Of a stretch of 64,000 nt of DNA, positions 29,710 to 43,676 are shown piece after piece. Positions within the stretch are counted from its first letter, which is position 1. Each line of letters opens with the position of its first letter. The notes beneath the pieces are model-generated. The model was not told the origin of the DNA. It saw nothing but the letters and a program-made list of their open reading frames with translations, and made no database searches. The stretch spans positions 4,487-68,486 of the forward strand of contig CAZFCJ010000003.1 in the NCBI GenBank assembly GCA_964517315.1, in the 5' to 3' direction. Both the position numbers and the translations under genes were made by a program. Source of the DNA: an uncultured Anaerolineaceae bacterium (lineage in GTDB: Bacteria; Chloroflexota; Anaerolineae; Anaerolineales; E44-bin32).

Positions 29710-30843
29710 TTGAGGCGGCGCTCGATGTTCGTTGGTCAGCAATTGCGGTTGCAACAGTTCAGCGTGGTAGAATGTCCGGCGCGGCGGGGTGAGGAGAGCC
29801 CCGCTTTCTTGCTGTATGGAGGTTCTTTGAAGCGCTGGCAGTTTTGGCTCGGCATCTTGATCAGCGCCGCGTTTCTCTGGCTCGCGCTGCGAGGATTGCA
29901 GCTTGACGAGGTGTGGGAGGCGCTGCAGGGGGCCAACTACATCTGGCTGATCCCCGGCGTGGGGGCCTACATGTTGGCCGTCGTGGCCCGTGCCTGGCGC
30001 TGGCACTACCTGCTGAGGCCGCTCAAAAGCGTGCCCACCCGCTCGATGTTTCCGATCGTCGCCATTGGTTATATGGGCAACAATGTCTACCCGGCCCGCG
30101 CCGGCGAGCTTCTGCGCGCGTACGTCCTGCGCAGGCGTGAAAGCGTCCCCGTCTCGGCCTCGCTGGCGACGATCATCGTCGAGCGCGCGTTCGACGGCAT
30201 GGTGATGCTGGGCTTCGTGTTCCTCAACCTGCCGGAGCTGGCCGAAGTCACCGCCGACTCGCGCTTCGCCGGCAGCATTCAGACGTTGGCCCTGTGGGGC
30301 GTGGGCGCCTTTTCGACGTTCGTCGTGTTGTTCTTGCTGATGGCGGTGTTCCCCGAGCCCACGCTTCGAATCACCGCCTGGTTGCTGGAGCGGCTGACCC
30401 CGGCCAGCATTCGCGAACGGGCTCTGCCCCTGGCCGAGCGTTTCGTCGGCGGCCTAGAATCACTGCGCTCTCCGGCCGATGTGGGGATGGTGCTGGTCAC
30501 CTCTATCGTCATTTGGCTGCTGGAGACCGGGAAATATTGGTTCGTCATGCACGCCTTCCCCTTCACGGTCAGTTTCTTCGCGCTGATGCTGATGAACGGC
30601 GTGGTCAACCTGGCCACGACGATCCCCTCCGCACCCGGTTATGTGGGCACGTTCGACGCGCCGGGCATCGCCGTTCTCGAAGCGTACGGGGTTCCAGGTG
30701 GCCTCGCCGCTGGCTACACGCTCGTGCTGCACGCTGCGCTGTGGCTGCCCATCACGCTGCTGGGCGCCTACTTCATGGCCCGCGAGAGCTTGAGCTGGAG
30801 GCGGGTGCAGGCTGAGATGGCTCAGGAGAGCGTCACCACGTGA
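29710..30843 (+). CDS. UPF0104 / lysylphosphatidylglycerol-synthase-TM-like (flippase-like) membrane protein
   Basis: Multi-TM protein with the typical N-terminal region (FLWLALRGLQLDEVWEAL...ARAWRWHYLL). The true start is probably downstream of 29710. Confidence 0.7.
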   Translation: MRRRSMFVGQQLRLQQFSVVECPARRGEESPAFLLYGGSLKRWQFWLGILISAAFLWLALRGLQLDEVWEALQGANYIWLIPGVGAYMLAVVARAWRWHYLLRPLKSVPTRSMFPIVAIGYMGNNVYPARAGELLRAYVLRRRESVPVSASLATIIVERAFDGMVMLGFVFLNLPELAEVTADSRFAGSIQTLALWGVGAFSTFVVLFLLMAVFPEPTLRITAWLLERLTPASIRERALPLAERFVGGLESLRSPADVGMVLVTSIVIWLLETGKYWFVMHAFPFTVSFFALMLMNGVVNLATTIPSAPGYVGTFDAPGIAVLEAYGVPGGLAAGYTLVLHAALWLPITLLGAYFMARESLSWRRVQAEMAQESVTT

Positions 30844-32132
30844 AGGTGGTCGTGGTGGGCGCGGGAGTGGGGGGTCTGGCCGCCGCTTACGACCTGGCGG
30901 GGGCGGGGCACGAAGTGGTGATCTGCGAAGCGTCCGACCACGTCGGTGGATTGGCCTCGGGCTTCAAGCTGCCCCGTTGGGACTGGTCGCTGGAGCGATA
31001 CTATCATCACTGGTTCGCCTCCGACGACCACATACTCGGCTTGATCGAAGAGCTCGGCTGGAGCGACCGGCTTCTCCTCCCGCGACCGGTGACCGCCGTC
31101 TACCACAATGGTGATTTCTACGCCCTGGATTCGCCCCTCAACGTCCTCCGCTTTCCGGGCTTCAACCCGCTGGATGTGGTCCGCTTCGGTCTGGTGACGG
31201 CGTTCCTCAAGTTCACGCCCTGGTGGAGACCGCTGGAGAGCCACACTGCCGACGCATGGATGCGGCGGTATTACGGAGAGAAGATCTACCGCACGCTGTG
31301 GAAGCCGTTGCTGGAAGGGAAGTTTGGCCCCTACTATGGTGAGGTCACAATGGCCTGGTTCTGGGCCCGGGTCAAGGCCCGGACGACCCGCTTGGGCACG
31401 TTCGAGGGCGGATTCCAGGCGTTCGTCGAGGAGTTCGCCGAGGTGGTCAAGACGCGAGGCGCCCAGCTGCGGTTGCGCTCGCCTGTGGAGTCGATCCGGT
31501 CACGTGACGACGACCGCCTGGAGGTGCAATACGACTCGGGGACGATCGAGGCCGATCACGTGCTCGTCACAACCTCGCCAGCGCTGCTGGCCAAAATGGC
31601 GCCGGAGCTCCCCGCCAGTTATCTGGACAAGCTGCTGTCGCTCAAGTCGATGGGCGCCGTGGTCCTGACTCTCGCGCTGCGCGAGCGCCTCTCCAAGAAG
31701 GGGATCTACTGGCACAACCTGCCCAAGGAGGCCGGCTTCCCCTTTTTGGCGCTGGTTGAACACACGAATTTCCTGTCTCCCGCGTGCTTTGGCGGCGACC
31801 ATATCGTTTACTGCGGCGACTACTTGGTTCCTGAGCATGAGTACTTTCGGATGTCGCAGGAAGAGCTGCTCGATCGCTTCCTGCCCGCGCTCTCCCGCTT
31901 CAATCCGGAGTTCGACCGCAGTTGGGTGAAGGATGTCTGGCTTCATCGAACGCCGTACGCCCAGCCGGTCCCTCCAGTCAACCATTCGGAGAACATCCCC
32001 GCGCTGAACACGCCGATTCCCGGCTTGTGGCTGGCGAGCATGAGCCAGGTGTATCCATGGGACCGTGGGACGAACTTCGCGGTCGAAATCGGGCGGGAGG
32101 CCGCGCAGCGGATCCTGGAGGCTCAGGTCTGA
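30840..32132 (+). CDS. FAD/NAD(P)-dependent oxidoreductase (amine oxidase/phytoene desaturase-like fold)
   Basis: 430 aa with dinucleotide motif VVVVGAGVGGLAAA. GTGA overlap with the UPF0104 gene. Confidence 0.75.
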   Translation: MKVVVVGAGVGGLAAAYDLAGAGHEVVICEASDHVGGLASGFKLPRWDWSLERYYHHWFASDDHILGLIEELGWSDRLLLPRPVTAVYHNGDFYALDSPLNVLRFPGFNPLDVVRFGLVTAFLKFTPWWRPLESHTADAWMRRYYGEKIYRTLWKPLLEGKFGPYYGEVTMAWFWARVKARTTRLGTFEGGFQAFVEEFAEVVKTRGAQLRLRSPVESIRSRDDDRLEVQYDSGTIEADHVLVTTSPALLAKMAPELPASYLDKLLSLKSMGAVVLTLALRERLSKKGIYWHNLPKEAGFPFLALVEHTNFLSPACFGGDHIVYCGDYLVPEHEYFRMSQEELLDRFLPALSRFNPEFDRSWVKDVWLHRTPYAQPVPPVNHSENIPALNTPIPGLWLASMSQVYPWDRGTNFAVEIGREAAQRILEAQV

Positions 32133-34057: not shown

Positions 34058-35320
34058 ATGGTGCCCGGTAGCTCGAAGGTGGATGCCGCCGTCGAAGGCC
34101 AGGGGCCGAAGCGGAGGCGCCAGACGCCGGTGACCGTTCCCAAGAGCCTGAAACGGGCTTGGTGGACCAGCAGCTTGCTAGGTGGGGTGGGCCTCGGGCT
34201 GGGCTGGGCGCTGATCGCACGAGCTGTCGTTCCGCCGGCGGGTTGGACTTGGTTTCTGCTGAGCGCCGCGGTCTGGCTCTACCTCTCGACGTTCACTCTC
34301 CGCAGATTGGAGCGCAACCGCCGGGAGGGCGAGGCTCGTATCCTCGGCGAATGGGGGCCGGGCACATGGCTCTCTCTCCTGCGCGCCCTGTTTATCAGCG
34401 CGCTGGCAGGGTTCCTGCTCCAGGGTCGACCTCCGGGATGGCTGGCCTGGCTGCCCATGGCCCTTTACACGGTCAGCGATGTGGCCGATTATTTCGACGG
34501 CTATTTTGCCCGCCGCAGCGGCCGTGTTACGCGGCTGGGGATTGATCTTGACCTCGAGCTCGACGCCCTCGGCCTGTTGGTGGCGGTGTTGCTGGCGGTT
34601 CGCTATGGGACTCTCTCGCCCGTTTTCCTGCCCGTCGGCTTCGCCCGCTACGCGTTTGCTCTGCTGATCGTCCTCCGCCGGCGGCTCGGTCGCCCGGTTT
34701 TCGAATTGCCGACGAGCGGGCTGCGGCGGCCCATCGCCGGCCTGACAATGGGGTTTGTCAGCGCTACACTGTGGCCGATCGTCGATAGTCCTGAGGCGAA
34801 TTTAGCCGCGGTGGTGTTCCTGCTGCCATTCGGCTTGAGCTTTCTTCGGGACGGGCTCGTCGTGGCGGGGGCCGTCGATCCACACAGTGCAACCTATCGG
34901 AGTGTGCGAGAAACACTGCGCGCGGGCCTGTTTGATGTTCTTCCGCTCCTGCTGCGCCCGGTCTTGGCGGCCGCCGTCGTATTGGAGATTCAGCGTCTGA
35001 TCGGGCATCAGGACGTTGCGGTTCAGGGGCTCATGTCTTGGGGTCTCAACCATCCTGAGACCGTCCTCATGGCGTTCGCGCTGCTGGAGGCGATAGGAGC
35101 ATTGGCCCTGCTCTTGGGTTGGGCCGGACGCCTGGCGGCGTTCGCGCTCGTGTTCCCGATCGGGCTGACCATCACCGCGTCTGCGCTGGATCCGCTGAGG
35201 GGCGTGCTGTTGGCGGTGAATTTGATCTTGCTCCTGACCGGAACCGGCCGGCTGTCCCTGTGGCACCCCGAAGCCGAATGGTTCGGGCGTCCGGCCGGTC
35301 AGAAACGCGCCCCAAATTGA
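34058..35320 (+). CDS. CDP-alcohol phosphatidyltransferase family protein with extra C-terminal multi-TM domain
   Basis: Exact signature DG-x2-AR-x8-G-x3-D-x3-D (DGYFARRSGRVTRLGIDLDLELD). 420 aa, about twice the usual length. Confidence 0.85.
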   Translation: MVPGSSKVDAAVEGQGPKRRRQTPVTVPKSLKRAWWTSSLLGGVGLGLGWALIARAVVPPAGWTWFLLSAAVWLYLSTFTLRRLERNRREGEARILGEWGPGTWLSLLRALFISALAGFLLQGRPPGWLAWLPMALYTVSDVADYFDGYFARRSGRVTRLGIDLDLELDALGLLVAVLLAVRYGTLSPVFLPVGFARYAFALLIVLRRRLGRPVFELPTSGLRRPIAGLTMGFVSATLWPIVDSPEANLAAVVFLLPFGLSFLRDGLVVAGAVDPHSATYRSVRETLRAGLFDVLPLLLRPVLAAAVVLEIQRLIGHQDVAVQGLMSWGLNHPETVLMAFALLEAIGALALLLGWAGRLAAFALVFPIGLTITASALDPLRGVLLAVNLILLLTGTGRLSLWHPEAEWFGRPAGQKRAPN

Positions 35321-35815: not shown

Positions 35816-36742
35816 TCAAGCGACAGATGGGTAAGCAGCACCTCTTTGTCCGCATATATCGAGCTGATGAGTGAGTAGGGCCAGGTTGCCCTCAGCGAGC
35901 TGCCTCCGTCGCTGCTCGAGCCAGGCGCGGAAGGCATCCCGGTCCAGACCGGGATGCCCCGCTAGCGCGTTCTCGACGGTATCCAGCATGAATTGCAGGG
36001 TTGTCAGCTCGTCCCGTGAATAGGCGCCGGCAGTCGGGAAAATGACCCAATCCGATGCGCCGGCTGCCGCCACTCGGCAACCTTTTTGGAGCAGCAGCGA
36101 GAGCAGCCGCCGGCCGGTTCGGCTGTGGCCCGAAGGATGACCTGAAGCGGTCGTCCTGCGGTCCATGGTCTTGTGGTACAAGCCTTCAATCCTGCGGTCC
36201 AGGTCGGGATTCAGCGTCGGCAGAAAGCGGGTCACGCCGTCGAAGTTGATCGTGAACCAGAACCAGCCCTGCGGTGGGATCAAACGCAGCAGACTTGGCA
36301 GCGTCGATTCCAGATCCACAAGGTCCAACAGCGCGTGGGCCAGGACCAGGTCCCAGTCAGACGATAGTGGCCTGAGCCCATCTTCAGTGACATCTCCATG
36401 GACCCAGCGAACCTGCAGACCCCCGTTGATATCGAGCTCGAGTCCGTTGTCGAGCGGGTGGGTCGGAACACTCTGTTCGGCGGCCCACGCGTGGAGCCGC
36501 CGATCGGCCTGGCGGAGCAGGTCGCCGTCCCGGTCCACCGCAGCGTACCGTCCGCCCCTCAGGACGCCCGCCTCGAGCAAGCGTTCGATCATCGTTCCGA
36601 TCCCCGCGCCGACCTCGACGATCCGGAGGGGGCGGGCGGGAAGTCGGTTCCAAAGCGACGTCCAAACGTGTCGATTCAAGGCCCGGTCGTCGATCGATCG
36701 CTTGGCCGCCAGATACTCCGGGTAATCGATTCGGGCGTTCAC
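35816..36742 (-). CDS. class I SAM-dependent methyltransferase (last gene of the ribA-PTPS-GT operon)
   Basis: SAM motif I RIVEVGAGIGTMIERL. The listed ORF runs to 36943 but would overlap the upstream 4-TM gene by 143 nt, so I inferred a GTG start at 36742. The start is uncertain. Confidence 0.7.
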   Translation of the reverse strand: MNARIDYPEYLAAKRSIDDRALNRHVWTSLWNRLPARPLRIVEVGAGIGTMIERLLEAGVLRGGRYAAVDRDGDLLRQADRRLHAWAAEQSVPTHPLDNGLELDINGGLQVRWVHGDVTEDGLRPLSSDWDLVLAHALLDLVDLESTLPSLLRLIPPQGWFWFTINFDGVTRFLPTLNPDLDRRIEGLYHKTMDRRTTASGHPSGHSRTGRRLLSLLLQKGCRVAAAGASDWVIFPTAGAYSRDELTTLQFMLDTVENALAGHPGLDRDAFRAWLEQRRRQLAEGNLALLTHQLDICGQRGAAYPSVA

Positions 36743-36800
36743 GCCGATCGCCTTCTCTACTGCCGCCTCAGACGGTAGGGATGCGTGAGGCGGCGTGGCC

Positions 36801-37172
36801 TCAGTGAGTTCGCTCCTCCATGGTTTCCGGCCCGGCCCGCATGTACTGCCACAAAGCCACGACAAGGATGACTTCATCCAATTTGGTGCCGTAGCCCACC
36901 AGATCGCGTGACCCCACCACAACCCAGGCCAGGATGGTGACAACCGTGTAGCCGATGAAGGCGTAGTAGAAGAGCTGCCGCCGCTCGGCGACGATCCCTG
37001 GATTCCAGAGGAACAAGACCAGCAGGCCCAGATAGCCCAGCCCGTTGAGGGTGAACATTAAATCTGGACTGCCGGTGTCGCGTATGGATGGGATGTTCAG
37101 GGCGATGAGATGTACCGCGGCGGTAGTCAGCGTGGTGATCACGATCACGGCGCGAAGTGTTGTTCTGCTCAT
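36801..37172 (-). CDS. 4-TM membrane protein, paralog A (function unknown)
   Basis: RBS GGAGGAG before ATG 37172 (MSRTTLRAV). About 55% identical by eye to the adjacent paralog, with shared blocks HLxxLNIP, TGSPD, FTLNGLGYLGLL and KLDExxLxVALW. Confidence 0.7.
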   Translation of the reverse strand: MSRTTLRAVIVITTLTTAAVHLIALNIPSIRDTGSPDLMFTLNGLGYLGLLVLFLWNPGIVAERRQLFYYAFIGYTVVTILAWVVVGSRDLVGYGTKLDEVILVVALWQYMRAGPETMEERTH

Positions 37173-37369
37173 GGTCCTCTCCTCCACAAGGAGCGTATCC
37201 AATCAGTTTTGTGATGGTCTGACTGTCGAGCGGGTAAGTCGGCCGGTGCCTCCTTCCTTTCCCAGGCCCGTATGGGCTCGGGCTTCCCATCGGGTGAATG
37301 TGCCAGGCGTGTGATCGACGACCAACGGCGCTTCGCACTCGACGGTGGAAACACGGGTCTGCCGGCCCC

Positions 37370-37753
37370 TCATGCCGGGGTCGATTGCGGTTCCTGGCGC
37401 ATATGCAGCCACAGGGCGACGATCAGGACGAGTTCATCGAGTTTGGTCAAATAGCCGAGCGGATCTACCTCCGTTCCACCGAAGCCTGTCCCGCCCAGGA
37501 TAAAGAACGCGACGATCGTGATCCCGGCAAAGGACATGAAGAGGTAATGGAAAAGGTCCCACTGCTCGGCCACGAAGCGCTGTTGAGTGAAGAACAGGGC
37601 CAGCAACCCAAGATAGCCGAGGCCGTTGAGTGTGAAGAGAATGTCCGGGCTGCCGGTTTCGCGCACGAAGGGGATGTTGAGGACGACGAGATGCACCCCG
37701 GCTGCGAACAAGCCGGTGACAAGGATTACGCCGCGGAGTGTCGAGCGGTTCAT
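37370..37753 (-). CDS. 4-TM membrane protein, paralog B (function unknown)
   Basis: 127 aa. ATGA overlap with the GT4 stop. Paralog of 36801..37172. Confidence 0.7.
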   Translation of the reverse strand: MNRSTLRGVILVTGLFAAGVHLVVLNIPFVRETGSPDILFTLNGLGYLGLLALFFTQQRFVAEQWDLFHYLFMSFAGITIVAFFILGGTGFGGTEVDPLGYLTKLDELVLIVALWLHMRQEPQSTPA

Positions 37754-38898
37754 AAAGTCCTCCTAGGATTGTTCGCTTCTTGTGTCTCTGCTGTTCCAAT
37801 TGGATCCTCGGAGCGGCCGCGGTGCCTCTGCATCAAGCTCCCCAAAAATTCCATGACCGTCTCTCCCGTGTCCTCCCAGGTGGGATGAGAAAGGTAGCGG
37901 GCCCGGGCGGCTTCGGCAAGTGGGACGAGCCGCTGGGACCGTTGAAGCAGGGGCCGCAAAATCCGCGCCAGGGTCTCGGGGGACTCGGGCGGCACAAGAT
38001 AGCCATTGCGTCCGTCTTCGACGAGCTCTTGGGCCCCGCCTCTGGCCGAGGCCACGACCGGGAGGCCGAATCCCATCGCTTCCAAGTACACCATCCCGAA
38101 CCCCTCAAGCTGCGAAGGCACCACGAGCAGATGGGCCTTGCGATAGCGCTGCCGCAGGGCCGCACGGGGCAGCTGCCCGTGAAACCGCACGCGCTCCTTA
38201 TCTCCGCCCCGTAGAGACAGCCGCCTCATTTTGCGGGCGTATTCAGGATCCAGATCCTCCCGCCCAACCACGTGCAGTCGCCAATTCTCGTCCCCTAAGT
38301 GCAGCAAGGCATGCAAAAGCGTGTGCAGGCCCTTGCGCGGGGTCAGTCCACCGACGAACAGCAGTTGGACCGGGTGTCCGGCATCCGGCGTGAGCTGGGC
38401 CTCGGACTCCGGGATGTTCTCACCGCGCCCCGGGTACGCGACCACGCCGGGAGCGGACGGCCCGATGAGGGCTCGGACGCTGTCTCGGGTGTGACGGGAG
38501 TTGAAGATGAAGCCGTCCAGGGTCCGCAGATAGGCGCTTTCCATCCACCGGTACAAAGCAGCCAAAGGGGAAGGGTGATCTTCCAGGCTGCGCAGATGAT
38601 GCACGATGGCCACCCTGGGCGGGCGGTCCGGCGGCAGCGCCCAACGATTGAGCCCCACCAAAGCCGGGTGACACAATTCATCCTGCAGCACGATGTCGGC
38701 CTCCAGCGCACGAAATCGATTGTGCCAATACCGGTCGAAATTTTGGGCAAGCTGCAAACCGTATCGTCGCCATGGGAGACTGACGACCTGCAGCGTCCAT
38801 CCGGCGTTTTGCAGTTCTTGCATGAGGCATCTGTCGTAAATGAATCCGCCCGTGGTCTCCGACAGATCGCCGCACAGGACCAGAGCGAGGCGGTTCAA
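37750..38898 (-). CDS. GT4-family (GT-B) glycosyltransferase
   Basis: Motif EGFGMVYLEAMGFGLPVVAS. Inferred TTG start at 38898 forms a TTGA overlap with the PTPS-like stop. The listed ORF extends to 39018. Confidence 0.8.
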   Translation of the reverse strand: MNRLALVLCGDLSETTGGFIYDRCLMQELQNAGWTLQVVSLPWRRYGLQLAQNFDRYWHNRFRALEADIVLQDELCHPALVGLNRWALPPDRPPRVAIVHHLRSLEDHPSPLAALYRWMESAYLRTLDGFIFNSRHTRDSVRALIGPSAPGVVAYPGRGENIPESEAQLTPDAGHPVQLLFVGGLTPRKGLHTLLHALLHLGDENWRLHVVGREDLDPEYARKMRRLSLRGGDKERVRFHGQLPRAALRQRYRKAHLLVVPSQLEGFGMVYLEAMGFGLPVVASARGGAQELVEDGRNGYLVPPESPETLARILRPLLQRSQRLVPLAEAARARYLSHPTWEDTGETVMEFLGSLMQRHRGRSEDPIGTAETQEANNPRRTL

Positions 38899-39302
38899 AG
38901 TTCCAGTGTAAAAGAAGCCCAGGCCTGATCGTCTTCCCAGAGTCGGACTTCGATCCAATCTACTTGAGGTTCGTCGATCTGGCCGGCCAACCCGCGGGCG
39001 AAAACTGTGGCGAACCACTCCAGGCTCGGGTTGCGGTCGGCGAAGGGCTGGAGTTCGTTGAGGGTTTGGTCGCGGTACCTCTCGATTTCCTGATCGAGGC
39101 GCCGCTCCACGTCGACCAGATCCAGCAGGTACTCATGCTCGTTCAGCTGGGCCGAGCCAAAACGGGCTTCGATCCGGTAGTGGTGGCTGTGCAGTTCATT
39201 TTCGGGCCCCCAATCGCCTCCCACGAGGTAGTGCTGGGCGACGAATTCCCGCCGTAAACATAGCTGGTACATGCCGCCGTGACCTCCCGTGTTCTGGCTC
39301 AC
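38895..39302 (-). CDS. 6-pyruvoyl-tetrahydropterin synthase/QueD-family (COG0720 T-fold) protein, non-canonical active site
   Basis: FVAQH...ENELHSHHY aligns with QueD FEAAH...CGRLHGH. The His triad is retained, but Glu sits at the catalytic-Cys position. Start is either GTG 39302 (GTGA overlap) or ATG 39272 (MYQLCLRREF). Confidence 0.75.
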   Translation of the reverse strand: MSQNTGGHGGMYQLCLRREFVAQHYLVGGDWGPENELHSHHYRIEARFGSAQLNEHEYLLDLVDVERRLDQEIERYRDQTLNELQPFADRNPSLEWFATVFARGLAGQIDEPQVDWIEVRLWEDDQAWASFTLEL

Positions 39303-40330
39303 CGCGCTTGACCATACGTGATCACGATTTGCACCGTGTCCTCCGGCCGGTCCAACAAGTCGTAGGCTTCTTCCGCCCTTTCAATCGGCAGCTCGTGGGT
39401 GATCAAGCGGGAAGGCCGGAGTCGGCGGGCAGCCAAGACTGCGGTCCGGAGGCGGCGGGATGCGGACCAGCGCCCGCGGTGTTTGGGATCTAGTCTTGAG
39501 ACTTGACTGCTGATGACCTTAAGTCCGGAGCGATGGAAACGCTGACCGAGCCGGAGGTGGACGGGATCCTCACCGTACCACGCGCCGACCACGACCCGCC
39601 CACTGTATCCAGTGGTCGCCAGAGCCAGGTCCAACGCGGCCGGTGCACCGGAAATCTCGAAGCTCAGATCCGCATCTGCCGGTTCGGGACTGGCGAGCAG
39701 CTCGCGGAGCTCCTCGCCCGCTTCCTTACGGCCCGGGTCGAGGCACTCGTCCGCGCCCCATTCCAGTGAGGCCCGGCGGCGGTTCGCTGCGGGATCCAGC
39801 GTGATGAGCCTCGCCAGCGGCAATTCTGCCAGAAGCGCGGTCGTCAGCAGGCCGACCACACCCTGCCCGTGGACGACGACCTTTTCGCCCACGAGGGGCG
39901 CGCCGTCCAGCATGAAGTTGACCGCCGTTTCCAGGTTAGCCATGAACACGGCGTCCTGCGGGGGCAGATCGTCCGGCAACGGAACGACGTCGTTGGGGTG
40001 GCAGATGAAGTGGCTCTCATGGGGACGAAATGCGAAAACACGGCGGCCGAGCCATGCCTGATCGGTGTGGGGCCCGGCCGCCTTGACCACGCCGACTGCA
40101 CTGTAACCGTACTTGAGCGGATACTCCAAACGTCCGTTTAACGCCGGCAAGCTGAAATCGACTTCGCTTCCCTCGGGGACCTGACCTTTGAAGAACAGCC
40201 GCTCCGTGCCGGCGCTCACCGCGGTGAGTTGGGTTCGGACAAGGATCTCGCCATGGCCCGGTTCAGGAACGGGGCCCTCGCGCACCTCGACCTGACCCGG
40301 CTCGCGTATCCACAGCGCCCGGTGTATCAT
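39299..40330 (-). CDS. MDR-superfamily zinc-type alcohol dehydrogenase-like oxidoreductase
   Basis: GroES-like N-terminal domain plus Rossmann motif VVVHGQGVVGLL. Start ATG 40330 forms an ATGA overlap with the RibD-like stop. Confidence 0.8.
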   Translation of the reverse strand: MIHRALWIREPGQVEVREGPVPEPGHGEILVRTQLTAVSAGTERLFFKGQVPEGSEVDFSLPALNGRLEYPLKYGYSAVGVVKAAGPHTDQAWLGRRVFAFRPHESHFICHPNDVVPLPDDLPPQDAVFMANLETAVNFMLDGAPLVGEKVVVHGQGVVGLLTTALLAELPLARLITLDPAANRRRASLEWGADECLDPGRKEAGEELRELLASPEPADADLSFEISGAPAALDLALATTGYSGRVVVGAWYGEDPVHLRLGQRFHRSGLKVISSQVSRLDPKHRGRWSASRRLRTAVLAARRLRPSRLITHELPIERAEEAYDLLDRPEDTVQIVITYGQAR

Positions 40331-41070
40331 CGTTGGTCCACGCTCGGCCGAGCCCAGAGGACCATATCGTCGCCGGCGGGCGCCCACCGGGGTTTTGTCA
40401 GTTCCGGGAAGCCTCTCGATTCGGGCCCAGCATCGTACGGCCGAACGCCGTTCATCATGCGCGGAGCGAGTGTGATGACGACCAAATCGACGAGGTCGGA
40501 CTGGAGGAAGCTGTGGATGATCCTCGCGCCTCCCTCCACCATCAACCGATCAACGCCGCGCTCGCGCAGCGCGCGGGCCAGTGCCGCCAGATCCAGTCTC
40601 TCAACATTGTTCTGAGGAATGTGCATGATCTCGACGCCCAGGGACTGCAGTTGGCTCTTGCGTTCCGGGTCGACGTCGGGGGCGCAGGCGATCCATGGCT
40701 TGAGGTCGCCAGTCACCAGCGTGCAATCCGGCGGCGTGCGAAGCCTGGAGTCGACGATAATGGCTTGTGGGTCCGAACCCTCCGAGCCGCGGGCCGTGAG
40801 TTGGGGGTCGTCCGCCAGGACGGTTCCAATGCCGACGAGAATCCCGTCATGCAGTGTACGAAGCTTATGTGTCATGGTCAATGAAGCGTCGCCGCTTAGG
40901 GTCGTCTTGACGCCCGGCTTGACAGAGATGCTGCCGTCGAGAGCCTGCGCGAACGTCAAGGTGAGGTGAGGCCGATCTGAATGCGGGAGCGCCTCGCTCA
41001 AGTGTGAGTAAAGCGCGCTAAGTGCGTCGTCCATTCGAAGGGCGCCGCGACTGCGCGTGTCCATCCCCAT
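40327..41070 (-). CDS. RibD C-terminal-domain reductase only (diamino/amino-ribosylaminopyrimidine 5'-phosphate reductase-like); no deaminase domain
   Basis: LTLTFAQALDGSI...LRTLHDGILVGIGTVLADDPQLT...RLMVEGGARIIHSFL matches the RibD_C/RIB7 pattern. Start is 41070 or 41034, and both overlap the ribA 3' end. Confidence 0.8.
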   Translation of the reverse strand: MGMDTRSRGALRMDDALSALYSHLSEALPHSDRPHLTLTFAQALDGSISVKPGVKTTLSGDASLTMTHKLRTLHDGILVGIGTVLADDPQLTARGSEGSDPQAIIVDSRLRTPPDCTLVTGDLKPWIACAPDVDPERKSQLQSLGVEIMHIPQNNVERLDLAALARALRERGVDRLMVEGGARIIHSFLQSDLVDLVVITLAPRMMNGVRPYDAGPESRGFPELTKPRWAPAGDDMVLWARPSVDQR

Positions 41071-41674
41071 CCGGAGTCAGGTCGAGCAGATGATTCAAGC
41101 GGACCGACTTGGCCCGCAGGTAGGAAGCGTTCTCGTCGGTGACCGGGGCCTCGAGTGGCACTCGGGCAGCAACGTGGATGCCGGCCTGATTCAGTTGGTC
41201 AATCTTATCCGGATTGTTGGTCAGCAGCCGCACGCTGAAGACATGCAAATCGCGGAGGATCGCAGCCGCGGTACTGTAGTCGCGCGCATCCGGCGCGTGG
41301 CCGAGCATCAGGTTGGCATCCACTGTATCGTAGCCTTCGTCCTGCAGGTTGTAGGCGCGAAGCTTATCCAGTAAGCCGATGCCTCGGCCTTCTTGGCGCA
41401 TATAGAGTACGACCCCCCGGCCCTCCTCCGCGATCTCGGCCAGTGAGCGCTTCAGCTGGACTCCACAGTCGCAGCGGGTTGAGCCCATCACGTCGCCCGT
41501 GAAGCACTCCGAGTGAATTCGCACGAGAACGGGATCCTCGGCGGTGAGGTCTCCCATCAGCATGGCCAGGTGCTGTTTATCGTCGCTGTCACTCTCGTAG
41601 AGACAAAGTCTGAATTCGCCCCTGCTGGTGGGGATGCGGGCCGAGGAGCGTATGCGGACTGCGGGGTCGGTCAT
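41018..41674 (-). CDS. ribA: GTP cyclohydrolase II (monofunctional, no RibB domain)
   Basis: Zinc-site HSECFTGD...RCDCG, RQEGRGIGL, and LRAYNLQD (Tyr equivalent to E. coli Y105 retained). Start set at ATG 41674 (MTDPAVRIR). Confidence 0.88.
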   Translation of the reverse strand: MTDPAVRIRSSARIPTSRGEFRLCLYESDSDDKQHLAMLMGDLTAEDPVLVRIHSECFTGDVMGSTRCDCGVQLKRSLAEIAEEGRGVVLYMRQEGRGIGLLDKLRAYNLQDEGYDTVDANLMLGHAPDARDYSTAAAILRDLHVFSVRLLTNNPDKIDQLNQAGIHVAARVPLEAPVTDENASYLRAKSVRLNHLLDLTPDGDGHAQSRRPSNGRRT

Positions 41675-41912: not shown

Positions 41913-43676
41913 GTGAGCTCGGGAGCCCTACAGTTGCGCGAACCCAAGCAAGTTGCCCACAGCCAGGCAGTGCGCGATTATCGGCGCGCACGTCAGAAAG
42001 CGGCCTTGCAGATCATATTCGATCGGCTCCGCGGACGGCCCACAGAGCTGCTTTCTTATGAGCAGGTTCAAGACAAGCTGCGGGCTCGTCCATCGTCGTC
42101 GAAGAAGCTGCGCGAAATCCCCCTGAATTCCATTGTTGGCAGCGTAGGCCGTTACGGCGATTTCACCCGCTCGTTCCTGCCCCGCGATGCGAGCGATGAG
42201 CAGCGATGGGCGCGTGTCAAAGCTATGGCTGAGGACCTGCAGGGGCTGCCTCCGATCGACGTGTACAAGATCGGCGAAGCCTATTTCGTGAGCGACGGTC
42301 ACCACCGCGTTTCCGTCGCCCGAGAGTTCGGAGCGGCGACGATTGAAGCCTATGTGACGGAGGTCAGCGCCCGGGTGGCCGTCACAGCCGAGGACGAAGC
42401 CCGCGATGTCATTCTCAAGGGGGAGTACACACACTTCCTGCAGCGGACCGAGCTGGACAAGCTGCGGCCGGAGGCCGAGATCCGGCTCACAGAGCCCGGA
42501 AAGTATGAAGCGCTGCTGGAGCACATCGACGTGCACCGGTACTTCATGGGCATCGAGCGGTCTCAGGAGGTCCCCTACGGGCAAGCAGTCGTTCACTGGT
42601 ACGACAGCGTCTATCTGCCGGTCGTCCATTCGATCCGCCAACAAGGCATCTTAAGGGATTTCCCAGGACGCACCGAGGCGGATTTGTATCTGTGGGTCAT
42701 GGAACATCGTGAACAACTGCGCGAGAGTTTGGGTTGGGAGGTGACCGCCGACCAGGCTGCCGAGAGCCTGGCATTCCGCCATGGCCGAACGTCGAGCCGT
42801 GTGGTCGGCCGTGTGGGTGAGCGCATCCGAGAGGCGATCGTCCCCGAGGAGCTGGACGGCGGGCCACCCGCCGGCGACTGGCGACGGCAGGTCGTATCTC
42901 GGCGCACCGACGATCGGCTGTTCAGGGACATCCTGGTTCCGGTCAGTGGGGACGACGCGGGCTGGCAGGCGGTGGAGCAGGCCATAACCATCGCCCGGCG
43001 AGAGGGTGGCCGGATGCTCGGATTGCACGTGCTGGTCGGCGATGCCGAGGAGGAGCTGCAGCGCAGCAGACGGATGCGCGAGAGATTCCAATCCCGGTGT
43101 GAAGAGAGCGAAATCCCCGGCCAAATGATCGCTGAGTTCGGTGAGATTTCAGTGGTGATCGCCGAGCGGGCGCGCTGGACGGACCTGGTGGTCCTGAGCT
43201 TGCAGCACCCGCCGGGCGAAAGTCCCTCCGCCAGGCTGAGTTCGGGCCTTAGCAAACTCATCCGCCGCTGCCCGCGGCCGCTCCTTATCGTCCCCAATGA
43301 GGCGACCGAGCTGGCCCACCCACTGCTCGCCTACGACGGCAGTCCAAAGGCCCGGGAAGCGCTTTTCGTGGCGGCGTACGCGGCCTCGGCCTGGGGCCTG
43401 CCGCTCACCGTTCTCAGCGTGCAGGAGGACGATGGGGGTGGCGAGGCAGCGCTGCGCGAAGCACAAGGATATCTCGACGAACGAGGTGTGGAAGCCGAGT
43501 TCGTGCTGGGCGAAGGCGAGCTCGTAAGAGCTCTCCTGGAATTGGCGGAAGCGAAGGCGTGCGATCTGCTTCTCTTGGGGGGCTATGGAGCCAATCCGGT
43601 GTTGGAAGCGGTTTTGGGGAGCAGCGTCGACCAGGTGCTGCGCCGCTCAACGCTGCCGCTGCTGATCTGCCGTTGA
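41913..43676 (+). CDS. multidomain protein: ParB/sulfiredoxin-like N-terminal domain + helical middle region + two universal stress protein (USP) domains
   Basis: The YFVSDGHHRVSVAREFG motif (ParB-like DGHHR), then two USP-like modules (ILVPVSGDD..., LLAYDGSPKAREAL...). The start is uncertain (GTG 41913). Confidence 0.65.
   Translation: MSSGALQLREPKQVAHSQAVRDYRRARQKAALQIIFDRLRGRPTELLSYEQVQDKLRARPSSSKKLREIPLNSIVGSVGRYGDFTRSFLPRDASDEQRWARVKAMAEDLQGLPPIDVYKIGEAYFVSDGHHRVSVAREFGAATIEAYVTEVSARVAVTAEDEARDVILKGEYTHFLQRTELDKLRPEAEIRLTEPGKYEALLEHIDVHRYFMGIERSQEVPYGQAVVHWYDSVYLPVVHSIRQQGILRDFPGRTEADLYLWVMEHREQLRESLGWEVTADQAAESLAFRHGRTSSRVVGRVGERIREAIVPEELDGGPPAGDWRRQVVSRRTDDRLFRDILVPVSGDDAGWQAVEQAITIARREGGRMLGLHVLVGDAEEELQRSRRMRERFQSRCEESEIPGQMIAEFGEISVVIAERARWTDLVVLSLQHPPGESPSARLSSGLSKLIRRCPRPLLIVPNEATELAHPLLAYDGSPKAREALFVAAYAASAWGLPLTVLSVQEDDGGGEAALREAQGYLDERGVEAEFVLGEGELVRALLELAEAKACDLLLLGGYGANPVLEAVLGSSVDQVLRRSTLPLLICR

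Follow-up and report, generated by a model that had tools for sequence, protein, structure and literature searches.

A PTPS-like gene in a tight operon

The subject of this study is a gene for a protein of the PTPS/QueD family, here called PTPSx, which lies in 64,000 nucleotides of DNA from an uncultured Anaerolineaceae bacterium (contig CAZFCJ010000003.1 of assembly GCA_964517315.1). This whole stretch is referred to as the window, and coordinates without a further label are positions in it. PTPSx is encoded on the minus strand in a tight operon, in the order GTP cyclohydrolase II (GCH II), RibD C-terminal-type (RibD_C) reductase, MDR-family dehydrogenase, PTPSx, GT4 glycosyltransferase, two DUF7475 proteins and methyltransferase. 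Judged by its sequence and that of its relatives, PTPSx is a real, strongly conserved and distinct variant of COG0720 that would belong to a widespread orphan pathway.

The initial annotation had placed a PTPS/QueD-family reading frame at 38895-39302. This minus-strand frame is present, the quoted stretch lies inside it, and its product matches the Pfam PTPS family PF01242 with 81.1 bits (E value 8.3e-23, cut-off 22.4). The start assumed there, a GTG at 39299-39302, overlaps the stop codon of the dehydrogenase gene. Translation probably starts at the ATG at 39272 instead, since all close homologues are about 125 amino acids long and begin with M-Y, and a Shine-Dalgarno sequence (GGGAGG) lies 10 nt 5′ of this ATG. 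The gene would then span 38895..39272 and encode a protein of 125 amino acids with the N-terminus MYQL; all PTPSx residue numbers count from this ATG. An AlphaFold2 model, made with 20 homologues, has a pLDDT of 95.2. In a Foldseek search with this model, SCO6650 of Streptomyces coelicolor (3D7J) was the top match (TM-score 0.91), followed by QueD (about 0.8), and PTPS structures were matched as well. The single sequence matched only SCO6650 in the PDB. With the family profile, SCO6650 was again first (E value 4.7e-16) and P. horikoshii PH0634 second (1e-6), while QueD and rat PTPS (about 1e-3; 9.3e-4 for the PTPS-II structure 1B66) followed and Plasmodium PTPS was hardly matched (0.4-3.5). 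At the level of sequence and predicted fold, PTPSx is thus confirmed as a member of the COG0720/PF01242 tunnel-fold family. No fused forms were found among the longer proteins searched, which is weak evidence.

The active site of PTPSx

The three histidines that had been named as zinc ligands are all retained. In a MAFFT alignment as well as in the family profile, His14 (in AQH) and His28 and His30 (in HSH) align with His16, His31 and His33 of E. coli QueD, and the profile places His28-x-His30 on the H-G-H of both QueD and rat PTPS. In QueD, zinc is held by both motif histidines and a third, N-terminal histidine (PMC9894224). PTPSx appears to keep this three-histidine metal site intact, and metal binding is predicted.

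The further claim, that a glutamate occupies the place of the catalytic Cys27 of QueD, holds for the spacing and is ambiguous for the alignment column. Glu24 sits four residues ahead of His28, which is exactly the spacing of Cys27 in the QueD motif C-x3-H-G-H. The PTPSx motif, W-G-P-E-N-E-L-H-S-H, has Glu at −4 and −2 from His28 and, at −3, an Asn that is invariant in the family. In the model, residues 22-25 form a short helix right ahead of the HxH strand; in QueD, a short helix sets Cys27 close to the metal (PMC9894224). Proper alignment shows no conserved cysteine in the PTPSx family, in agreement with its description as a Cys-less COG0720 member. His71 of QueD belongs to the first catalytic triad (PMC9894224), and the partners Asp70-His71 align with Arg67-Asp68 of PTPSx. 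Because this pair is exchanged and the cysteine is absent, the whole Cys-Asp-His system of QueD is replaced in PTPSx.

Conservation was counted over 238 PTPSx homologues. His14 is kept in 234, Glu24 and His28 in 224 each, His30 in 227 and Glu113 in 211 of them. Glu113, which is common to PTPS-IV too, aligns with the conserved ring-anchoring Glu of QueD. Conservation of Glu24 and the three histidines is, by these sequence counts, strong and not a matter of chance.

PTPSx is a sister clade of PTPS-IV

The subfamilies of COG0720 carry the signatures C-x3-H-G-H (PTPS-I), C-x5-H-G-H (PTPS-II), E-x2-H-G-H with Glu at −3 (PTPS-III) and FGPAQ (PTPS-IV) (PMC5041015, PMC5445326). None of the four fits PTPSx. 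A tree of 89 sequences and 127 columns, 75 of them PTPSx sequences, was obtained by a quick search and rooted with the PTPS-I/II paralogues of carrier genomes and E. coli QueD. In this tree, where PTPS-IV has few rows and PTPS-III and PTPS-VI have no reference sequences, the PTPS-IV clade (support 99) and the PTPSx clade (92) are sisters (95), apart from PTPS-I/II. As far as sequences can tell, PTPSx is therefore a large, distinct clade of COG0720, sister to PTPS-IV (to which SCO6650 belongs) and outside PTPS-IV proper. This agrees with the initial suggestion of a Cys-less clade that has no assigned function. The clade could be the subfamily called PTPS-V or could be separate from it; the function of PTPS-V has been described as unclear (PMC5041015).

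The two sister clades differ at the very residues that were considered above. The signature is W-G-P-E-N..H-S-H in PTPSx and F-G-P-A-Q..H-G-A in PTPS-IV. All 73 PTPS-IV sequences have the A-Q of FGPAQ and carry Ala at the positions of both Glu24 and His30, so that the complete three-histidine site is lacking. Further fixed switches (PTPSx/PTPS-IV) are Glu35/Asp, Asn72/Asp, Pro82/Thr and Ser83/Thr, and PTPS-IV has invariant residues of its own, Ser114, His115 and Arg40. His14, Gly22, His28, Tyr32, Asp51, Asn81, Glu85 and Glu113 are invariant in both clades. Since a clade has either both Glu24 and His30 or neither of them, these residues seem to behave as one functional unit, which might consist of a metal plus a base or of a metal site of three His and one Glu.

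A 375-amino-acid protein (P0250) carries three tandem domains of the PTPS-IV type and has close relatives (P0271-P0283). One relative is labelled as coming from the haptophyte alga Chrysochromulina tobinii, so PTPS-IV may also occur in eukaryotic algae.

The operon and its conservation

Directly upstream of PTPSx lies the gene of an MDR-family (zinc-ADH-like) dehydrogenase (39299..40330, minus strand; PF00107, 42.8 bits). Its best NCBIfam matches, all below cut-off, are to secondary-alcohol-oxidising enzymes (BchC, Tdh and IolM types). It is preceded by a pyrimidine reductase of the RibD C-terminal type without deaminase domain (40327..41070, minus strand; PF01872, 138.5 bits), which scores below cut-off with TIGR00227 (149.8 bits, cut-off 150.15) and TIGR01508 (128 bits, cut-off 186.45). 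A stand-alone GCH II (41018..41674, minus strand; PF00925, 225.7 bits) comes first in the operon, so that the partner is indeed GCH II rather than GTP cyclohydrolase I (GCH I), as the initial annotation had stated. This GCH II keeps the zinc cysteines Cys54, Cys65 and Cys67 of E. coli RibA as well as Tyr105. Downstream of PTPSx follows the GT4 glycosyltransferase (37750..38898, minus strand; PF00534, 125 bits), whose likely TTG start overlaps the PTPSx stop codon (TTGA). Two small DUF7475 membrane proteins (37370..37753, PF24287 with 35.9 bits, and 36801..37202, 39.4 bits; both minus strand) share 52% identity, and the first of them recurs at related Anaerolineales loci. The operon ends with a class I S-adenosylmethionine-dependent methyltransferase (35816..36943, minus strand), which has weak Pfam methyltransferase matches and an uncertain start. 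Convergent with the operon is a gene for a CDP-alcohol phosphatidyltransferase with a DoxX-like C-terminal membrane domain (34058..35320, plus strand; PF01066, 45.9 bits, and PF07681, 22.7 bits). A flippase-like LPG_synthase_TM membrane protein (29710..30843, plus strand; PF03706, 184.9 bits) is encoded about 5 kb away and is possibly associated with the cluster.

The cluster recurs among PTPSx relatives, which were found at 38 loci of species-representative genomes from Anaerolineae, Desulfobacterota, Salinibacter/Salinivenus and haloarchaea. For PTPS-IV, 80 metagenome loci of the FGPAQ type were retrieved. Neighbours within 8 kb were then compared between 20 PTPSx and 24 PTPS-IV loci, with the window proteins as queries. 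The dehydrogenase, which adjoins the PTPS-like gene, was present at 19/20 PTPSx and 24/24 PTPS-IV loci, the methyltransferase at 18/20 and 24/24, and the GT4 glycosyltransferase, which follows the PTPS-like gene, at 14/20 and 24/24. The CDP-alcohol transferase (12/20 and 16/24), RibD_C (12/20 and 21/24), GCH II (10/20 and 10/24) and LPG_synthase_TM (6/20 and 8/24) likewise accompany both clades. Because the same neighbours surround both, PTPSx and PTPS-IV are, on this comparative basis, positional counterparts in what appears to be one pathway. PF00925 and PF01872 have also been reported independently from PTPS-IV neighbourhoods (PMC5445326). The sister relationship with its shared cluster position, the joint loss of Glu24 and His30 and a GCH II/RibD_C pair that apparently does not serve riboflavin are points that go beyond the initial annotation.

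Homologues of the CDP-alcohol transferase lie upstream on the same strand at L005, L007, L012, L015, L008 and five haloarchaeal loci, with Pfam confirmation in L005 only. At L005, L012 and the PTPS-IV locus L137, LPG_synthase_TM is located between the CDP-alcohol transferase and GCH II. GTP cyclohydrolase III (GCH III) was a neighbour at 5/20 PTPSx and 0/24 PTPS-IV loci. A GCH III homologue is found within 8 kb of the dehydrogenase, PTPSx and methyltransferase genes at all five haloarchaeal loci; in L026, from Halorubrum, the GCH III gene (PF05165, 284 bits) abuts the dehydrogenase gene, directly upstream of the dehydrogenase-PTPSx-methyltransferase series. Judged by these gene neighbourhoods, GCH III takes the place of the bacterial GCH II in haloarchaea, a non-orthologous swap which suggests that the pathway is entered with the ring-opened product of GTP.

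Several of these loci contain variants of the individual genes. The Salinibacter cluster has GCH II and RibD_C fused in 460 amino acids (L013:5488-6870), and the matching Salinivenus reading frame has 477 (G010:C3); a second, RibBA-sized GCH II elsewhere in Salinibacter serves riboflavin. At L137:8396-10327, GT4 and methyltransferase are fused into a 643-amino-acid protein, which supports that both act on the same molecule. A creatininase-family gene (for example, L092:12409-13266) accompanies GCH II in PTPS-IV clusters and was counted at 1/20 PTPSx and 6/24 PTPS-IV loci; the archaeal formamide hydrolase ArfB belongs to the same family. A replacement of Tyr105, as in a GCH II of the FAPy type such as SCO6655, had been expected in PTPS-IV-linked copies, but 6/6 copies compared keep the Tyr, and no claim is made for it.

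In Anaerolineae, GCH II is kept for the PTPSx pathway and not for riboflavin

In the genome of the window (G000, 88.9% complete), the operon copy of GCH II is the single PF00925 match and PTPSx the single PF01242 gene, and no match was found for RibH, RibB and CofH. FolB (118 bits) is encoded beside FolE on contig C76. Six further Anaerolineae carriers, including one complete 4.5-Mb chromosome, have one GCH II and one PF01242 gene each, and RibH was found in none of these six. A full RibD was not found in five Anaerolineae carriers, and QueC (PF06508) was not found in the same number (the window's genome and four others).

To cover the class, 301 Anaerolineae species representatives were sampled, 80 of which match the family profile at an E value of at most 1e-15 and about 41 of these at no less than 160 bits. 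Between 40 strong carriers and 20 non-carriers, the difference for GCH II is pronounced (38/40 versus 2/20). RibH, the lumazine synthase, was found in 2/40 carriers and 1/20 non-carriers. Relatives are non-independent samples in these counts, yet the carriers come from many families. The Anaerolineae keep GCH II for the PTPSx pathway and not for riboflavin, and this pathway is not riboflavin synthesis because lumazine synthase was found in only 2 of the 40 carriers.

With RibH found in only 3/60 high-completeness Anaerolineae genomes, riboflavin auxotrophy appears to be the norm for the class.

A proposed pathway from GTP

We consider it somewhat more probable than not, with a probability of roughly 0.55, that PTPSx is a catalyst in a cluster that turns a GTP breakdown product into a sugar-bearing, methylated and possibly membrane-linked compound. 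Each step of the mechanism is inferred from the family, fold, conserved residues and cluster described above, together with the independence from riboflavin, queuosine and a FolB bypass.

In the proposed route, GCH II (GCH III in haloarchaea) would open GTP to 2,5-diamino-6-ribosylamino-4(3H)-pyrimidinone 5′-phosphate. The deaminase-less RibD_C reductase would convert it to the ribitylamino form, 2,5-diamino-6-ribitylamino-pyrimidinone 5′-phosphate. Since the RibD deaminase is absent, this intermediate should keep its 2-amino group, a feature that would suit binding by the tunnel-fold Glu113. The MDR dehydrogenase may then form a ketone by oxidising a secondary side-chain hydroxyl. In PTPSx, Glu113 would bind the 2-amino-4-oxo-pyrimidine ring, or a pterin derived from that ring, and the metal on His14, His28 and His30 would bind side-chain oxygens. 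Glu24, in place of the Cys of QueD and PTPS, might serve as general base or as fourth metal ligand. The reaction envisaged resembles that of PTPS: an enolisation or a rearrangement, in which phosphate would be eliminated, a ring closed or both. Mammalian PTPS-II (1B66), which shares the fold and the zinc histidines, is the model for this chemistry, with metal-bound side-chain oxygens and a base-driven rearrangement. The product would be glycosylated by GT4 and methylated by the methyltransferase, and the CDP-alcohol phosphatidyltransferase would probably link it via a phosphodiester to a membrane lipid or another alcohol, a step in which the LPG_synthase_TM protein, sometimes encoded alongside, might take part.

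A tentative extension, to which we give clearly less credence, is that membrane lipids or envelope compounds of a new class are the product of the cluster, with a head group that would be a glycosylated, methylated and phosphodiester-linked polyol of a GTP-derived 2-amino-4-oxo-pyrimidine or pterin. If so, the skeleton of the head group would be made by a metal-dependent PTPSx and the phosphodiester by the CDP-alcohol phosphatidyltransferase, and the route from GTP via GCH II or III would run independently of the riboflavin and folate pathways. One may speculate that the phosphodiester-linked pterins of halobacteria (halopterin) are the haloarchaeal product. In the literature, no published account of the cluster, of its product, of the biochemistry of any member or of pterin lipids was found.

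Several points weigh against the proposed route. PTPS-IV occupies the same cluster without Glu24 and His30, which suggests that the shared step needs neither residue or that the two clades differ in the step. MAFFT places a one-residue gap in the Glu24 loop, which is shorter than in QueD, and this is the source of the ambiguous column in spite of the exact spacing. A reduction by RibD_C followed by re-oxidation of the side chain is not obviously economical, and the dehydrogenase may rather be a reductase whose step follows that of PTPSx. The genes for the CDP-alcohol transferase and the flippase-like protein stand outside the window's operon, and the lipid link derives from gene neighbourhood alone. 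Where genes are missing, the evidence comes from metagenome-assembled genomes, and that of the window is incomplete to the degree given above. Finally, catalysis by PTPSx, its substrate and the role of Glu24 are predictions from sequence and context.

Alternative functions

It seems unlikely, though of all alternatives this fares best, that PTPSx works in a classical pterin pathway. Here, it would act like PTPS-II on 7,8-dihydroneopterin triphosphate from the genome's own GCH I, with the MDR dehydrogenase as substitute for sepiapterin reductase and GT4 as pteridine glycosyltransferase, to give a methylated pterin glycoside of the kind known from cyanobacteria or Chlorobium. The combination of PTPS, reductase and glycosyltransferase is the logic of known pteridine-glycoside pathways. 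In its favour, the window's genome encodes FolE, and PTPSx has retained the Glu that anchors a pterin (Glu113) along with its three metal histidines. On the other hand, it is GCH II (bacteria) or GCH III (haloarchaea) that has been recruited to the cluster, and GCH I was not among the families at the loci examined, where it was never used as a query. The occurrence of GCH II in Anaerolineae almost only alongside PTPSx, although the riboflavin pathway is missing, does not fit such a role either. PTPSx also lacks both the C-x5-H-G-H motif, its loop being free of Cys, and the Asp-His pair of the triad, and a PTPS-II identity was rejected on these grounds.

A slightly poorer case can be made for riboflavin or F420, and we regard it as improbable. 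PTPSx would then supply or process a pyrimidine precursor, for example as the missing pyrimidine deaminase of the archaeal type. PTPS-IV has been stated, with reference to unpublished work, to be involved in F420 synthesis (PMC5041015). The absence of a deaminase domain from the cluster reductase and the position of the haloarchaeal PTPSx gene beside arfA would suit this reading, as would the CofE-like gene of the window's genome. But RibH is missing from Anaerolineae carriers, the genome of the window is likewise without RibB, and a check of seven genomes gave no CofH-like F0 synthase, which would leave a precursor without a consumer. CofE-like genes are also common with or without PTPSx (36/40 carriers versus 13/20 non-carriers) and absent from the carriers in Salinibacter and Desulfobacterota. 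Nor would such a role account for the conservation of GT4, methyltransferase and CDP-alcohol transferase. With these counts and no CofH found, a specific link to F420 was not seen.

The CofE-like F420 gamma-glutamyl ligase of the window's genome (about 255 bits) is encoded at C11:28877-29542 (L050), and such ligases occur in 49/60 sampled Anaerolineae. Either Anaerolineae salvage a deazaflavin precursor or the CofE-like ligase serves something else.

We think it very unlikely that PTPSx is non-catalytic, that is, a binding or scaffold subunit which holds an intermediate for the neighbouring dehydrogenase or glycosyltransferase. The best argument for this is PTPS-IV, which does without Glu24 and His30 in the same cluster, and SCO6650 is reportedly free of zinc, without a catalytic triad and inactive as PTPS. 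Yet the three-histidine site and Glu24 are near-invariant across a very wide taxonomic range, which is the pattern of a catalytic site, and Ser114, His115 and Arg40 of PTPS-IV suggest an active site that is remodelled rather than dead.

The two established enzyme identities have almost no probability left. As 6-carboxy-tetrahydropterin synthase for queuosine or archaeosine (QueD), PTPSx would be in line with its public names and with being the genome's only PF01242 gene, but it reaches only 31.9 bits with the QueD model TIGR03367 (cut-off 89.25), has neither C-x3-H-G-H nor the Asp-His pair, stands in a context without queuosine genes in Anaerolineae carriers that include a complete chromosome and in which QueC was not found, and carriers in other phyla own a separate PF01242 paralogue of the Cys-motif type. 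The likeness to QueD (4NTK) is confined to the tunnel fold, the three metal histidines, the ring-anchoring Glu and the short helix before HxH. The separate paralogue has C-x3-H-G-H in Desulfobacterota and haloarchaea and C-x5-H-G-H in Salinivenus, with Asp in the place of the Cys in Salinibacter. The QueD-type paralogue of Halorubrum (L076, G012:C23:363965-364333) contains one in-frame TGA within its PF01242 match.

Equally negligible is PTPS-III, the lead given by the initial annotation, according to which side-chain cleavage to 6-hydroxymethyl-dihydropterin would bypass FolB in folate synthesis: Plasmodium and archaeal PH0634-type enzymes are likewise Cys-less with a carboxylate beside HxH, and PH0634 (E-x2-H-G-H) is the second-best PDB match, but their Glu sits one residue closer to the motif, where PTPSx has its invariant Asn (with which the Glu of PH0634 aligns), the Plasmodium enzymes are matched far more weakly than SCO6650, FolE and FolB adjoin in the window's genome, and the genes around PTPSx have no relation to folate.

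Significance of the PTPSx clade

COG0720 is a textbook case of routinely misannotated subfamilies. PTPSx homologues are labelled '6-carboxytetrahydropterin synthase' at NCBI and JGI, and matches in the ESM Atlas carry generic PTPS names only; the name QueD on PTPSx relatives in public records is almost certainly wrong. For the PTPS-IV type, including the solved SCO6650, no function was assigned in the literature reached. As a sister with an intact metal site in the same cluster, PTPSx is probably the better choice when substrate and chemistry are sought. Many riboflavin-auxotrophic Anaerolineae keep GCH II only together with PTPSx, which points to another fate of a riboflavin-type intermediate. 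Carriers of PTPSx are widespread among microbes of sediment, hypersaline habitats and soil, and the cultured ones, Salinibacter, Halorubrum saccharovorum and Halorhabdus, make the proposal directly testable.

Further genes in the window

Two other genes were observed near the cluster. A flavin amine-oxidase-type oxidoreductase (30840-32132, plus strand) is translationally coupled to the LPG_synthase_TM gene. Divergent from the operon lies the gene of a 587-amino-acid protein (41913-43676, plus strand) with tandem universal-stress-protein domains and a weak DUF4032 match, and a stretch with 69% identity to it is similarly placed in locus L024.

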